Positions 15,714-22,098 of a DNA stretch of 64,000 nt are shown piece after piece. Source of the stretch: Promethearchaeia archaeon (lineage in GTDB: Archaea; Asgardarchaeota; Lokiarchaeia; Sigyniarchaeales; SOKP01); assembly GCA_029856045.1 (NCBI GenBank), contig JAHQWG010000012.1:64001-128000 (forward strand). Direction: 5' to 3'. Position numbers and translations under genes: made by a program. Below the pieces are notes generated by a model. It was not told where the DNA came from, searched no databases, and saw only the letters and a list, made by a program, of their open reading frames with translations. The stretch's first letter is position 1; every line of letters starts with the position of its first letter.

Positions 15714-16493
15714 TTAAGTAAATTGACCGATCGTTAATGTAAGAATAATTGTTAATATTATGGCTAATAAGAAATGAATAAAATATTTAATTATTGATCC
15801 CTTAGACAGTCTGGCTAAATATTGAGCTAAAAGGAATACAGTGATAATTATTATTATAAAAGAAATTATGAATTGTATATATATTAGATTGGGATTAACA
15901 AAAAATGGTGTCAACATTAGTAATGCTCCTAAGAATGAAGAAAGTCCATTAATAATAGCCAAAATACGTGAAGCAAAATCTTCTGCTTTCTCATTAATAT
16001 CCTTTTCTTTCTTATTGGATTTCTCGTCTGAATTAACATTAACTTGTTTTTTTATATAGGTTTCTTTCGCTTTTCGGCTTAACCCAATCATATGCTTCAA
16101 TATTTCCTCTTTTATTTGATTTTGATTATCAAGAGCACTTTCTTCATTCTCTGAATCATCATCTTCATTATATATTGCCATCGCTTTTTTCAATTCGTAA
16201 TTGATTTTTGCTCTTTCAGCTTCTTCAGAAAGGAGAGATCCAGAGATACCAGAAACACCCATAGCAATTGCTGTAGCAATACCAGGTAAAATAAGGATAT
16301 CAGTTGTTGAATATAGAGATTGATCTCTTATATATAAAGTAAAGATTCCGATTATAATTCCCAGCGTTGTTAAAAGACCATCTGTAAAGTTCATAATAAA
16401 ATATCGACGAGCAATCGCACCGACTTCTGAAATTTCCCAGTATAGTTTCCAGCGCCCAATAATACTTTTATTACTTTTTTCTCTTACATCCAT
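15714..16493 (-). CDS. VIT1/CCC1-family membrane protein
   Basis: ARRYF.MNFTDG, AIAMGVSG, SEEAER, soluble acidic loop, three C-terminal TM segments. Confidence 0.8.
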   Translation of the reverse strand: MDVREKSNKSIIGRWKLYWEISEVGAIARRYFIMNFTDGLLTTLGIIIGIFTLYIRDQSLYSTTDILILPGIATAIAMGVSGISGSLLSEEAERAKINYELKKAMAIYNEDDDSENEESALDNQNQIKEEILKHMIGLSRKAKETYIKKQVNVNSDEKSNKKEKDINEKAEDFASRILAIINGLSSFLGALLMLTPFFVNPNLIYIQFIISFIIIIITVFLLAQYLARLSKGSIIKYFIHFLLAIILTIILTLTIGQFT

Positions 16494-17531: not shown

Positions 17532-17605
17532 GATAATTTAAATCTAAATTTATATAAAAATTATATTTTTTTATATTTTTATGTAAAAATCGTTAAGAAT
17601 TATAT

Positions 17606-17674
17606 ATGGATATAAGGAAGCTAATTGTACTTAGTCACAGAGGGATAACGGGTCGATTTATGGAATATTTATAA
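17606..17674 (+). pseudogene. N-terminal remnant of a glycerophosphodiester phosphodiesterase (GDPD/UgpQ-like)
   Basis: Manual translation MDIRKLIVLSHRGITGRFMEYL*; resembles the GDPD N-terminal HRG...EN motif, then stops. Confidence 0.5.
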
Positions 17675-17824
17675 TTTATTTTAGATTATAAAAAGAAATA
17701 ATAATATAAAATAAAAACTTTTAATTAAAAATTTTATAAATAACAAATAAAGATTTTTTTGTGTCTTTAATATTGTTGGAAAAAAAATAAAAAATAATCT
17801 AATTTTAGTTTAGAGGAAATAAAA

Positions 17825-18742
17825 ATGACTGAAAACGTTGAAGATTTGATTTCAAACAATAATAAAGATGAAATAGAAAAACAAGAAATTAAACTTCAAT
17901 TTCATTTTTATCTCACATTTTTTGCTTTTATATATTTAGGATCATATTTCTTACCTGGTATAATTTTAATGTTATTTATATTGCTATATTTTGTACCATA
18001 CTTTTTACAGACCACAAATTTTGTTTCTCTTTTTATAGAATTAAACCCCTTACTTGCTTTAACATTAATGCCTTTAATTATTATCAGTTGTTATTTAATT
18101 CATTTATTTTTTATAGGTTTATTAACTCGATGGTGCTGGAGTTTTACTGAAAAGAAGTCTCCAACAAAGAATGGGATTATTCCACGAAATGTTCCTAGCG
18201 ATACTTTAAACTATTACCATATTCGTTCATTTGTAATTAAATATGGGAAATTTGTATTCACTAAAGGTCTTTTTCCTTGGTTACTGAATTGGTATTATAA
18301 TTTCGTTGGATCAAATAAAATTGGAAAAGGTACAACAATTGAAGAGGAAATTGTTGGTGATAAATTTATTGATGTAGGTGAAGATTGTTATATTGGAGTT
18401 AATTCAGCAGTATGTTCACACACTGTCGAGGGAACTTTTGGTCGGATACCTTATTTTGAAATAAAACTTGGAGATAATGTTACTTGTACGGCATTTAACA
18501 TAGTCGGTCCTGGATGTGATATCCATGAGAACTCTTATTTATTGCCGTTAGGCTCTACCGGTAAAAACCAAACTACCAAGGGGAATAGTTATTATTTTGG
18601 AATACCTATGCGCAAGATTTTCACGAAAAAGATAATAGAATATTTAAAGATCTCTCAAGAAGATTTAGAAAAAGATAAAGAGTTAAGAAATAGACAAAAA
18701 AAACTTAAGGAAAAAATAGAGAGTGATGTATTATTAAAATAA
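17825..18742 (+). CDS. Membrane-anchored left-handed beta-helix (hexapeptide) acyltransferase-like protein 1
   Basis: Two hydrophobic segments, then KIGKGT, VGEDCYIG, CSHTVEG, LGDNV, YFGIP. Confidence 0.8.
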   Translation: MTENVEDLISNNNKDEIEKQEIKLQFHFYLTFFAFIYLGSYFLPGIILMLFILLYFVPYFLQTTNFVSLFIELNPLLALTLMPLIIISCYLIHLFFIGLLTRWCWSFTEKKSPTKNGIIPRNVPSDTLNYYHIRSFVIKYGKFVFTKGLFPWLLNWYYNFVGSNKIGKGTTIEEEIVGDKFIDVGEDCYIGVNSAVCSHTVEGTFGRIPYFEIKLGDNVTCTAFNIVGPGCDIHENSYLLPLGSTGKNQTTKGNSYYFGIPMRKIFTKKIIEYLKISQEDLEKDKELRNRQKKLKEKIESDVLLK

Positions 18743-19662
18743 TTGAAGTTAATAATAATACAAGTGAAGGAGAAAATAATGAATTAAGTATATCGGAAAA
18801 TAATGAAAAGCATGATTTAATTATTGATTTTACTACAAGTAATGCTATTAGCAGAGTTGATATTAAGTTTTTAGTAATATATATTCCGATTTTTTGGTTT
18901 AGCGGTATATTAGTTGCGATATACTGGTATCAATACACTAAAAATCTCCCTTCAATTCAAGAGAACTGGATTTTCTGGCTTTTTCCGATTTTATATCTGC
19001 CTATTGCCATATTGTCCATGCTTTTCATTTTTATTTTTGGTTGTGTTTTTTTTAGTAAATTATTTTTAATAATTATTAATTTAATTCACAAACCAAGAGA
19101 GGGAGTATTTAGAACGGATTTAGGAGATAAGAATTTTGAGTTTTGGTGTCTTCGAACTAAATTAAAAAAATTAGTTATATGGTTACTGAGAACATGTCCT
19201 CTTCCTTGGATCGATATTATAGCTTTTAGATGGTTTGGAGTAAAAATGGATTTTTCAAGTCATCTTCTAGATTCTTGGTTTGATATTGAATTTATTAAAT
19301 TAGGACGTAAAGTAATGGTTGGACAGGGCTCAGTTGTTATGAGTTCAATGATAGTTGGTAAATATTTAATTATTAAACGAATTATTCTTGATGATTACAC
19401 AATAATAGGAGGAATGGCTTGTGTTTCACCAGGAACAATTACAGGTAAAGATTCACTTTTGGCTGCTATTTCTTCTACGATTTACAATCAAGTGCTTGAA
19501 TCAGAATGGGTTTATTTTGGAATTCCATGCATTAAATTTAAACCAAATAAGTTTACATTTAAAAAAAAAATGACTAAAAGGAGTGTGGATGAGGAGGAAG
19601 CGATTAATGTTGAACAAGAAATTAATATTGAAGATGATAAGAAAGAAAAATATAACTTGTAA
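18733..19662 (+). CDS. Membrane-anchored left-handed beta-helix protein 2 (start uncertain; frame extends ~95 codons upstream of the called TTG at 19012)
   Basis: Frame open from 18727 and encodes a TM segment (KFLVIYIPIFWFSGILVAIYW); KPREGVF, FGVKM, LGRKVMVGQGS, YFGIP. Confidence 0.7.
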   Translation: MKIIEVNNNTSEGENNELSISENNEKHDLIIDFTTSNAISRVDIKFLVIYIPIFWFSGILVAIYWYQYTKNLPSIQENWIFWLFPILYLPIAILSMLFIFIFGCVFFSKLFLIIINLIHKPREGVFRTDLGDKNFEFWCLRTKLKKLVIWLLRTCPLPWIDIIAFRWFGVKMDFSSHLLDSWFDIEFIKLGRKVMVGQGSVVMSSMIVGKYLIIKRIILDDYTIIGGMACVSPGTITGKDSLLAAISSTIYNQVLESEWVYFGIPCIKFKPNKFTFKKKMTKRSVDEEEAINVEQEINIEDDKKEKYNL

Positions 19663-19678
19663 TTTGAGGGGTTAAAAA

Positions 19679-20593
19679 ATGTCAGTACCTACAAGCATGC
19701 GGGTTGGACCATTTACCCCAACTATTTTAGTTAAAAAGAAATATATAATCTTTTATATATTTCTCATCTGGATTTCAATGATCCCTATTTTATTAGAATT
19801 TTGGTTATATTGGCAATGTTTTTGGGATGCAATAAAACCATTATACTTCTATTTTTTTCTCCCGCTTCTCTGTTTTGTTATGTATATAACTGCAGTATTA
19901 ACATCTGTTCTTTTTGCAAAATTAATATTAGTTATTATAAAGGCAATTCTTAAACCAAAAGAAGGTATTTTTCTTAGAGACGCATCAGATAAAGATTATC
20001 GCTATTGGAGTTTAAGAAATACAGTTAAAAAATGGCCAATTTGGCTTTCACACAAATTTCCGTTTCCATTCCTTGATAATATTTGTTTTAAAGTTTTTGG
20101 AGTTAAAACTAAATTTTCAAATTCGTTGTTCGAGGGATGGGTAGATTGTGAATTCATTGAATTTGGAAAAAATGTAATTATAGGACAAGGAAGCATCATT
20201 CAATCCGCTTGTATTGTTGGAAAGTTGTTAATTATAAAAAAAACAATTATTGAAGATAATGTAAGAATTGGAGCACACGCTATATGTATGCCTGGCACTC
20301 ATATTAGAAAAAATAGTGTGTTAGCAGCAAATTCTGTTGCAACAGTTGGACAAGAACTTGAAGAAGGATGGATTTATGTTGGAGTTCCTGCAACAAAATA
20401 TAAAAAGAATAGATTCTTCGAAGATGGTTTAGAAAATGTACTTGGAGATGTAAAAGATGTTGAAAATTTAAGAAAAACGTATGAGAATTTATATATTAAA
20501 CGTTATGATAAACATCTTACTTATAAAGAGAGAAAAGAACTTAAAGAAGAAAGGAGAGTAGAAGAAAAAATAAGATTGGAGCAGGGTGTATAA
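19679..20593 (+). CDS. Membrane-anchored left-handed beta-helix protein 3
   Basis: Two TM segments, KPKEGIF, FGVKT, FGKNVIIGQGS, IEDNVRIG, YVGVPA. Confidence 0.8.
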   Translation: MSVPTSMRVGPFTPTILVKKKYIIFYIFLIWISMIPILLEFWLYWQCFWDAIKPLYFYFFLPLLCFVMYITAVLTSVLFAKLILVIIKAILKPKEGIFLRDASDKDYRYWSLRNTVKKWPIWLSHKFPFPFLDNICFKVFGVKTKFSNSLFEGWVDCEFIEFGKNVIIGQGSIIQSACIVGKLLIIKKTIIEDNVRIGAHAICMPGTHIRKNSVLAANSVATVGQELEEGWIYVGVPATKYKKNRFFEDGLENVLGDVKDVENLRKTYENLYIKRYDKHLTYKERKELKEERRVEEKIRLEQGV

Positions 20594-20833: not shown

Positions 20834-21460
20834 TTGAATCAATTAAAATACCAAGTAATTGAAATTCTAATAGAACATGTAAGAATAGTTACAAATAGTA
20901 TGAAAGAGATGCATTTATTTTATAAATTATGGACTGAACCTAGAGATAAAAAAGAAATAAATGAAAAAAAAGAAGAAATAAACCATTTAGAAGAACAGGC
21001 GGATGAATTAAAAGCAAGGATCATAAAAAAATTCGCTGAAGCAGAATCACAAGGATTAAGTACATTATTCGATTTAGTCCTAAAAACTGATGGGATTTTA
21101 AATTATATTAATGAATTTACAGATAGAATATTGTATATTGATAAAAGACTTTCTAAGAACATTAATAAAAGAATTAATTCTATCATAAAAATATCTATAG
21201 ATATGGGAGAAGCATTAACAATTGCAGTTAAAAGCTTATTGGGGCTAAGAGAGAAAGCATTTGATACATCAAAAAAACTACATTTGCTAGAACATGAAAT
21301 AGATTCACAATATAGAGATTTTGAGAATTATTTATACAATTCAACTGATTTAGATGTAATTACTATTTTAAAGGTAAAAGGAGCTGTCCAGAAAATTGAG
21401 GAAATGGCCGATTTAATTGAAAACATTGCAGATTTGATTCGAATCATAGCATATAGTTAA
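20834..21460 (+). CDS. DUF47/PhoU-like phosphate-transport regulator
   Basis: Repeated helical motifs LEEQADELK and LEHEIDSQY; C-terminal EEMADLIENIAD. Confidence 0.8.
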   Translation: MNQLKYQVIEILIEHVRIVTNSMKEMHLFYKLWTEPRDKKEINEKKEEINHLEEQADELKARIIKKFAEAESQGLSTLFDLVLKTDGILNYINEFTDRILYIDKRLSKNINKRINSIIKISIDMGEALTIAVKSLLGLREKAFDTSKKLHLLEHEIDSQYRDFENYLYNSTDLDVITILKVKGAVQKIEEMADLIENIADLIRIIAYS

Positions 21461-21504: not shown

Positions 21505-22098
21505 CTAAGGTTTAAACCATTTTAAAATATAATATGTTTTAGTCTGCGGATTTGCTATAATAAAACGTTTCCTCACAGAAGTCGCTAATCTTCCTGCTCT
21601 AACCATCTCAATTGCTGAAATATTGGAATCACTTCGCAATACTTGAATAATAAATGGGGAATGCTCAAGACCAGGTCCTTTCTTGTAAACTGCAAAATCG
21701 GCTCCAAATTTTAATGCGGGTCGAACAACATATCCCTTGTCTCTTAAATCCTTATAGATATTGTACTTATCTTCAAACAGATTATGTTTATTTTTAGCAA
21801 ACTCAAAAAATTCTTCTGAAGTGAGGTTTTTATCAGATTCTACATCAAATATGCTGATCCTTCCAGATTCCAGCAAATATTGTGCTTCAATTAATGATAA
21901 TTCAGTAGGTTTTGAATAATATTCCAATCTAGGTTTATTTATACCCAATGGGCTTCCATAAAAATTATTCACATATAGATAAGAACCGTATAGCGGATTA
22001 AAGATAATTACCCTTGAATTGATTAATTTCGCAGGGATAACCTCTGGAATATCTTCTTCTTTGATTTCATCAAGTGAAATTGCGTTTTCTTTTACCAT
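21505..22098 (-). CDS. endA: tRNA-intron endonuclease, catalytic subunit
   Basis: LSLIEAQYL, YKDLRDKGY, KFGADFAVY (Tyr), EHS (His), VRK (Lys). Confidence 0.93.
   Translation of the reverse strand: MVKENAISLDEIKEEDIPEVIPAKLINSRVIIFNPLYGSYLYVNNFYGSPLGINKPRLEYYSKPTELSLIEAQYLLESGRISIFDVESDKNLTSEEFFEFAKNKHNLFEDKYNIYKDLRDKGYVVRPALKFGADFAVYKKGPGLEHSPFIIQVLRSDSNISAIEMVRAGRLATSVRKRFIIANPQTKTYYILKWFKP

Follow-up and report, generated by a model that had tools for sequence, protein, structure and literature searches.

Three tandem membrane-anchored beta-helix genes of an Asgard archaeon are free-standing relatives of the epsilon-poly-L-lysine synthetase terminal module

Background

What is made by three adjacent genes whose products share one plan, a membrane hairpin followed by a left-handed beta-helix (LbH) domain, when only the first product keeps a histidine of the catalytic type? 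The question is raised by a locus at positions 17825-20593 of a 64,000-nucleotide stretch of DNA from a Promethearchaeia archaeon of the Asgard archaea, which we call the window and which corresponds to C15:64001-128000 of a 3.34-Mb genome in 55 contigs. Our answer is that the three genes, here g1, g2 and g3, encode three different proteins of the "membrane hairpin plus beta-helix" type and constitute a free-standing relative of the epsilon-poly-L-lysine synthetase (Pls) terminal module. As to their activity, we favor, with a probability of roughly 60%, a heterotrimeric membrane LbH acyltransferase that has one active site and uses a coenzyme A (CoA) thioester as donor. As described in PMC8117764 and PMC8506220, Pls comprises an adenylation domain, a thiolation domain, six transmembrane (TM) helices and three domains, C1 to C3, which are related to acetyltransferases.

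Three different proteins built on one plan

The three genes all lie on the forward strand. In the open reading frame listing g1 (17825-18742) encodes 305 amino acids with two TM helices, a linker and a divergent LbH domain, and is classified by tree and hidden Markov model (HMM) as what we term a type A unit. The open frame of g2, a type B unit, runs from 18727 to 19662 and has 311 codons, or 290 amino acids if translation starts at ATA 18790; it opens 16 bases ahead of the g1 stop, and a further 16 bases separate its own stop from the ATG of g3. The latter gene (19679-20593), a type C unit, encodes 304 amino acids with two TM helices, an HKPxEG-type linker and a canonical LbH domain like that of the maltose/galactoside acetyltransferases (MAT/GAT). 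BLASTP identifies the three products as paralogues, with 40% identity between g2 and g3 (E 5e-58), 24% between g1 and g3 (E 1e-11) and 22% between g1 and g2 (E 1e-9).

Hydropathy analysis detects two hydrophobic segments near each N-terminus, at residues 30-64 and 66-104 of g1, 23-47 and 59-101 of g2, and 20-45 and 52-93 of g3. The corresponding membrane hairpins are encoded on the same strand at 17912-18136 in g1 (residues 30-104, with AlphaFold helices whose predicted local distance difference test score, pLDDT, exceeds 90), at 18856-19092 in g2 (residues 23-101 numbered from ATA 18790, aligning with the g3 hairpin) and at 19736-19957 in g3 (residues 20-93, by AlphaFold and hydropathy). In all three proteins a Lys/Arg-rich stretch comes after helix 2 and is followed by the beta-helix region. 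The chains close on a Y.G.P motif, in which, over the 11 units encoded by the source genome, Y233 is present in at least 90% and G235 and P237 are invariant. A first-pass annotation of this DNA had recognized three paralogues of common plan, together with the motifs CSHTVEG in g1, MSSMIVG in g2, QSACIVG in g3 and the closing Y.G.P; all these motifs are present, and BLASTP, hydropathy and, for g3, AlphaFold confirm the description.

The beta-helix assignment is clearest for g3, which matches the Pfam Hexapep and Hexapep_2 models (PF00132/PF14602) at E 4.5e-9, with 36.3 and 31.8 bits against a gathering score of 27. The Hexapep score of g1, 16.4 bits, is under the same cut-off, and g2 gave no match to PF00132 or PF14602. 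The AlphaFold model of g3 (mean pLDDT 74.5) has helices at 20-48 and 61-90, a further two in the linker, and short beta-strands at 160-243 with pLDDT 76-93, and g3 is thereby predicted to adopt the LbH fold. Its best Foldseek matches are MAT, GAT and AntD (E 8e-7 to 4e-5), and its LbH domain superposes on the maltose/galactoside acetyltransferases with a root-mean-square deviation of 1.6-1.8 A over ~92 columns at 25-30% identity. A search of the ESM Atlas with g2 recovered only Promethearchaeota clusters labeled "acetyltransferase".

Gamma-carbonic anhydrases, including the heterotrimeric subunits of complex I, also stand near the top of the g3 matches by sequence and by fold, which raises the question of whether the genes encode not an acyltransferase but a membrane LbH trimer that resembles gamma-carbonic anhydrase or is purely structural. 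However, these matches cover generic LbH coils only, and the structures that fit best are the acetyltransferases. Furthermore, none of the His columns is invariant over all 11 units, which leaves no three-His site for zinc, and the one conserved histidine occupies the general-base position of acetyltransferases. We therefore consider a non-acyltransferase role highly improbable.

Relationship to the terminal module of Pls

The first-pass annotation had proposed that the three genes are a split Pls module and had named the NCBIfam model TIGR02353, which covers all three units and has a curated cut-off of 423.1 bits, as the means of comparison. By this model alone the window proteins would not be recognized, since they score 20-31 bits, and the best score anywhere in the source genome is 50.6 bits. 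The g2 match nevertheless extends over residues 79-284 (profile positions 26-227), taking in helix 2 and the linker.

A profile of our own, built from the 11 units of the source genome (276 positions) and searched against 1.84 billion representative proteins, returned 7597 matches at E <= 1e-3, of which 137 reach E <= 1e-30. Among the best 150 matches are long proteins with three matched stretches each (E 1e-30 to 1e-36), nine of which pass TIGR02353 (471-642 bits) and include an amino-acid adenylation domain, that is, they are Pls/PosA proteins (P0229, P0233, P0239, P0251, P0259, P0268, P0266, P0273 and P0241). The single stretches in these proteins often cover profile positions ~10-250 of the 276, and so not just the LbH domain but also the helices and the linker, with 23-72 bits per unit. 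When types A, B and C were compared with units 1-3 of Pls by hhalign, the probabilities were 96.0-99.3% over 108-198 columns. The linkers too correspond, reading K-P-x-E-G...Y-x-[FY]-W in the Asgard proteins and K-[PE]-G-x-Y-P-x-W...Y-F-R-x-W in Pls. By these profile comparisons homology to the C1-C2-C3 region of Pls/PosA is established, and the units are real relatives, even though formal membership in TIGR02353 is not. On the structural side, the polymerizing end of Pls-type synthetases has no solved structure: our profile search of PDB sequences found no Pls-type chain, the chains recovered matching the LbH part only (~145-260, 25-49 bits), and this search, like a fold search of PDB structures, gave only generic LbH enzymes.

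Kinship with C1-C2-C3 does not extend to a one-to-one correspondence of A with C1, B with C2 and C with C3, which we rejected. In a midpoint-rooted FastTree of 120 units (~160 columns) each of Pls units 1, 2 and 3 has a clade to itself and the Asgard units form a group of their own, in which A stands apart from B and C; in hhalign A, B and C are each closest to Pls unit 1. Because the three Asgard types thus group together and are all nearest to C1, their three-part division probably arose separately from that of Pls. What stands of the proposed split Pls module is therefore the relationship to C1-C2-C3; descent by fission finds no support in either the tree or hhalign.

Other three-unit proteins were also encountered. 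P0234 from the chytrid Obelidium mucronatum (809 aa) and P0226 from an Elusimicrobia metagenome-assembled genome (MAG; 651 aa) are three-unit single chains without an adenylation domain. In P0218 a short-chain dehydrogenase is fused to three units, and in P0262 a fatty-acyl-AMP ligase.

A single catalytic-type histidine

The histidine of the CSHTVEG motif is His199 of g1, encoded by CAC at 18419-18421 on the forward strand, and is our candidate for the general base. In an alignment of 78 sequences, g1 and 77 proteins in which A and B units are fused, it is invariant (78/78), and the glutamate three residues past it is not conserved, so that of the His/Glu motif initially reported only the histidine holds. 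A profile of 17 A units aligns His199 with H115 in the TGHPVHH segment of E. coli LacA (1kqa; E 5.9e-5), which we take to be the catalytic general base of that enzyme. A variant strain carries CAT at the His199 codon, which still encodes histidine.

The same column holds serine in B units, including g2, and alanine or serine in C units, alanine being the residue in g3. The histidine is thus kept by the first gene alone, as had been noted from the motifs, and a general-base histidine in every subunit, as seen in MAT/GAT enzymes, is not found. Type C is nevertheless the most conserved of the units (64-78% identity across 76 homologues), though it lacks the histidine. Pls-type proteins display a comparable pattern, with the histidine in unit 3 only, as QTHLFEDR, in 13/13; this sample consists of nine full proteins and four without an adenylation domain, and of these four at least one is only part of a longer protein.

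Gene order and fusions

The arrangement of the units in relatives is regular in the complete cassettes. In 18 regions of 14 related genomes all 23 complete cassettes read A, B, C along the direction of transcription; these regions additionally contain five orphan A+B genes, two cassettes that hold a pair of A genes, and a single two-unit locus. A second set, of named MAG records, comprises 31 loci, four cut by contig ends and one odd frame being left uncounted, and shows the cyclic order in 31/31 complete cassettes, either as A,B,C (18) or with fusions as [A+B][C] (4) or [C+A][B] (9). Together the two sets give a cyclic order A-B-C in 54/54 complete cassettes. Fusions obey the same rule: among 181 classified proteins we found 122 A-B chains, 12 C-A and two C-A-B, the last being the Asgard single-chain proteins P0125 (797 aa) and P0127 (651 aa), and none with the order B-A, A-C or C-B. 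Six further multi-unit chains hold a fourth unit type (A-D1, C-D1, D1-D1).

The source genome itself has three loci besides that in the window. On contig C3 a 565-aa A+B chain is followed by C, and on contig C25 a 558-aa C+A chain is followed by B. The third, at C15:11941-13514 (L001), lies upstream of the window and comprises two units of the fourth type, of which D1 has the histidine (HSHLIYND) and D2 does not. In some relatives units of this type sit in frames of ~780 aa broken by a single stop.

From the fixed order and the fusions we infer a 1:1:1 assembly of A, B and C. A complex prediction for g1, g2 and g3 gave a partner score of 0.81; the control with chain 2 replaced gave 0.82, and the partner-replaced controls 0.00 and 0.00, so that we count it neither for nor against binding. 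The asymmetric heterotrimer with one catalytic site put forward in the first-pass annotation gains strong comparative support from the cyclic order and from the A-B, C-A and C-A-B fusions, though it is still a proposed assembly.

LbH enzymes are usually homotrimers, and one might suppose that the genes are merely tandem duplicates encoding three separate enzymes, each homotrimeric, with B and C either using other catalytic residues or inactive. The occurrence of orphan A+B genes and two-unit loci, and the retention of the histidine by single scattered units in distant Asgard families, would fit such an arrangement. It sits poorly, however, with the 122 A-B, 12 C-A and two C-A-B chains, as a chain of the A-B or C-A-B kind cannot make one-type homotrimers, and with the unbroken cyclic order of the complete cassettes. 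Moreover, B and C lack the histidine throughout, yet C is the best conserved unit, and a single histidine is likewise the pattern in the fused relatives of the Pls kind. We hence regard separate homotrimeric enzymes as quite unlikely.

Probable donor and proposed mechanism

The source genome, which is 100% complete by marker genes, has no match to PF00550 (PP-binding) and none to PF01648 (phosphopantetheinyl transferase). It does encode 13 PF00501 adenylate-forming proteins, all of acyl-CoA-synthetase size and lying on other contigs or far away, and no adenylating enzyme adjoins any of its four loci. The initial remark that a nonribosomal peptide synthetase (NRPS) adenylation or carrier partner is missing nearby is accordingly borne out, and the carrier and the phosphopantetheinyl transferase are in fact absent genome-wide. 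Because the genome is without a phosphopantetheine carrier system, a CoA thioester is the most likely donor, and it would also be the simplest. In keeping with this, the acetyltransferases on which the LbH domain of g3 superposes at 1.6-1.8 A are CoA-dependent.

A competing interpretation takes the relationship to Pls as functional. In it the A:B:C ring would work like the Pls terminal module as a carrier-independent polymerase, making an amide-linked homopolymer or adding amino acids to a surface molecule; the monomers would be activated in trans, for example as aminoacyl-CoA, -AMP or -tRNA, and the six-helix base would let the product out, either through it or along it. Those relatives that have been studied are all polymerases, built on the same plan of units (PMC8117764), and in Pls mutations in the linkers between the TM helices alter polymer length (PMC8506220). 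Also in its favor are a homology that spans the helices and linker and not just the LbH domain, the pattern of one histidine per three units common to Pls, and the 13 adenylate-forming enzymes that could activate a monomer. Against this, the genome lacks a thiolation domain and a phosphopantetheinyl transferase, an adenylating enzyme stands next to none of the four loci, and among 89 neighbor proteins in 14 relatives no amino-acid pathway or polymer-degrading gene lies beside the cassettes. The presence of several paralogous cassettes per genome suits modification enzymes of varied specificity at least equally well. On balance a carrier-independent polymerase appears unlikely to us. The wider form of this proposal, under which the Asgard cassettes in general would be relatives of poly(amino acid) synthetases that need no carrier, with the single-His ring building or attaching an amide-linked product from CoA-, AMP- or tRNA-activated monomers and passing it across the membrane along the six helices, and with exchangeable A subunits setting specificity, we likewise hold to be unlikely.

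Under the acyltransferase reading that we prefer, g1, g2 and g3 would be subunits A, B and C of one membrane-anchored LbH enzyme. Each subunit would contribute a two-helix hairpin and an LbH domain, the latter probably cytoplasmic, as suggested by the Lys/Arg-rich segment after helix 2. The LbH domains would pack into a trimer, as is usual for LbH enzymes, but here A:B:C in fixed cyclic order, with the hairpins forming a six-helix membrane base. Subunit A alone would supply the putative general base His199, giving one site at the interface between A and a neighbor, and B and C would act as scaffold and binding walls. The donor would most likely be acyl-CoA, and the acceptor an amine or hydroxyl on some molecule that is exported or associated with the membrane.

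Several points weigh against this reading. The case for A:B:C association is wholly comparative, and the surveyed genomes are close kin, the two sets possibly sharing genomes, so that the cassette counts are not independent. Stoichiometry is irregular, as seen in the five orphan A+B genes, the two cassettes with two A genes and the two-unit loci, and for the fourth-type locus L001 it is hard to see how a trimer would be made from two units. Distant Asgard families have only scattered single units, and because these keep the histidine in 12/12, homotrimers appear viable in the family. The AlphaFold model of g1 has a mean pLDDT of 63.6, falling below 50 in the LbH domain (165-260), and the geometry around His199 is unreadable. 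The TIGR02353 scores, 20.2 bits for g1, 26.3 for g2 and 30.9 for g3, are far under 423. CoA binding is argued from family likeness alone, and nothing found points to an acceptor. Finally, g2 is without a canonical start ahead of its membrane helices, and the neighboring genes differ between the source genome and its relatives.

The start of the second gene

The earliest in-frame ATG, GTG or TTG of g2 is at 19012, and a start there would lose helix 1 and half of helix 2. Because the alignment with g3 reaches well upstream of this position, translation of g2 probably begins at a non-canonical codon, for example ATA 18790. A TTG at 18743, straight after the g1 stop, belongs to the g1 frame, which closes after 15 codons. 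In 11/13 relatives an ATG or TTG is available to the B gene within a few codons after the preceding stop; the leader of the window g2 is shared, among the 13 relatives examined, only by a near-identical MAG locus (L057). An assembly error at the g1/g2 junction was considered and rejected. Contigs of two other studies, one identical to the window and the other with 12 substitutions (7 synonymous, 5 conservative), span the junction with 0 gaps, and since they cross it without an indel the DNA at the g2 start is real.

Two type C units elsewhere in the source genome, at C3:25020 (L007) and C25:105389 (L004), have ATA and ATC as their apparent starts. An N-terminal motif, (M)S/T.P.S.R/K..PFT, begins exactly at these codons, and in one of the two units the ATA overlaps the upstream stop as ATAA.

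Genomic context and distribution

An AT-rich spacer of 293 bases (17532-17824), presumably the promoter region of the three-gene unit, separates g1 from a divergently transcribed gene for a VTT/DedA protein (Pfam, E 7.6e-26), a neighbor that had been correctly recognized at the outset. Beyond these, Pfam identifies a VIT1-family iron/manganese transporter at 15714-16493 and, downstream of the locus, a PhoU-like DUF47 protein at 20834-21460 and a tRNA-splicing endonuclease at 21505-22098. The first-pass annotation had also seen a GDPD remnant here and, with it, a lipid-related context. GDPD has no match on contig C15 at E <= 1, its four matches in the genome lying on C32, C27 and C14, and the lipid-related context is not conserved, the relatives having other neighbors.

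In the relatives, [A+B][C] cassettes have as neighbors a CxxCxxCC gene in divergent orientation, a zinc alcohol dehydrogenase of 335 aa and DUF6512, and cassettes of separate A, B and C genes have DUF1295 and a C-N hydrolase. In the source genome DUF1295 has weak matches only (21-23 bits), and the two C-N hydrolases are both on other contigs. We therefore rejected a function drawn from recurring neighbors: the genomes belong to one family or order, the synteny is possibly just inherited, and the same genes are absent beside the source-genome cassettes.

Among the relatives, a same-strand gene for a DUF1295 membrane protein (steroid 5-alpha-reductase related) lies between an orphan A+B gene and an A,B,C cassette in L042, L043, L045 and L054 (and L040), and a C-N hydrolase abuts cassettes in L039/L040, L044, L049 and L050. 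A heliorhodopsin gene (PF18761, E 4e-85) is located in one relative at L039:14709-15545, a few kb from the cassettes. Genes for B12-dependent ribonucleotide reductase occur by cassettes in two relatives, at L052:7464-9998 and L053:3-4058, with inteins that carry LAGLIDADG or HNH endonuclease domains.

With g2 as query 34 of 121 sampled genomes of the phylum match at E <= 1e-5, including all 15 of the source organism's own family and both of a sister family, with up to 15 matches per related genome. One search recovered 690 relatives of g3 and another 289 A-B fusions. The homologues carry source labels of Promethearchaeota, Lokiarchaeota and further Asgard MAGs; no cultured carrier was found, the search of named genomes giving MAG records only. 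In public records members are labeled "hypothetical protein", "DapH/DapD/GlmU-related protein" or "acyltransferase" only.

Significance

The locus is a real and conserved free-standing relative of the Pls terminal module, most likely a heterotrimeric one-site membrane acyltransferase, and apparently undescribed; our literature searches, with subscription journals mostly outside their coverage, retrieved papers on Pls production and unrelated work but no description of an Asgard three-gene system. In effect the Asgard genes present the Pls polymerizing module taken apart into three subunits, where fusions fix the order of neighbors and a single histidine marks the probable active site. For Pls itself this predicts that C3 (QTHLFEDR) alone would be catalytic. 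The Asgard proteins are a large and well-conserved family of membrane enzymes, whose product could be relevant to what is unusual in the envelope or lipids of these archaea. Should the polymerase interpretation prove true, the several cassettes of a genome would produce a set of surface polymers, or of modified lipid head groups, not so far described in the archaea most closely related to eukaryotes, and the split genes would be a tractable system in which to approach how Pls C1-C3 works, a mechanism still unsolved.

Comparison with known systems

Single-unit proteins with two TM helices and an LbH domain from other Asgard families (L027-L038) share the hairpin, a P-x-E-E-G linker and the LbH plan with the window proteins. 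They are encoded by lone scattered genes and have ~25% identity to g2; because all 12 keep the histidine, they probably form homotrimers with three active sites.

With the MAT/GAT-type enzymes (LacA 1kqa, MAT 1ocx and the C. difficile protein 4isx) and AntD (3vbi), g3 shares the LbH fold and the hexapeptide repeats, and it keeps the IG[SA]H...PG coil of LacA. Unlike the window units, two of which lack the histidine, the MAT/GAT-type enzymes are soluble and homotrimeric and have three equal active sites; the window units additionally have the N-terminal membrane hairpin and a linker of ~70 residues. The gamma-carbonic anhydrase heterotrimer of mitochondrial complex I (7tgh, 8iuf, 7ar9) is also a membrane-attached LbH trimer of differing subunits, some of them inactive. 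Here the likeness is restricted to the LbH coils, and the window proteins have neither the zinc His triad nor any link to complex I.

The closest parallel is with Pls/PosA proteins such as epsilon-poly-L-lysine synthetase, which are built of the same unit (two TM helices, a conserved linker and an LbH domain) in three different versions, only one of which has the histidine, the third in Pls as against the first gene in the window. Pls/PosA proteins are one chain, whereas the window has three genes and its Asgard relatives A-B, C-A or C-A-B chains, and they carry in cis the adenylation and thiolation domains that the window proteins lack.

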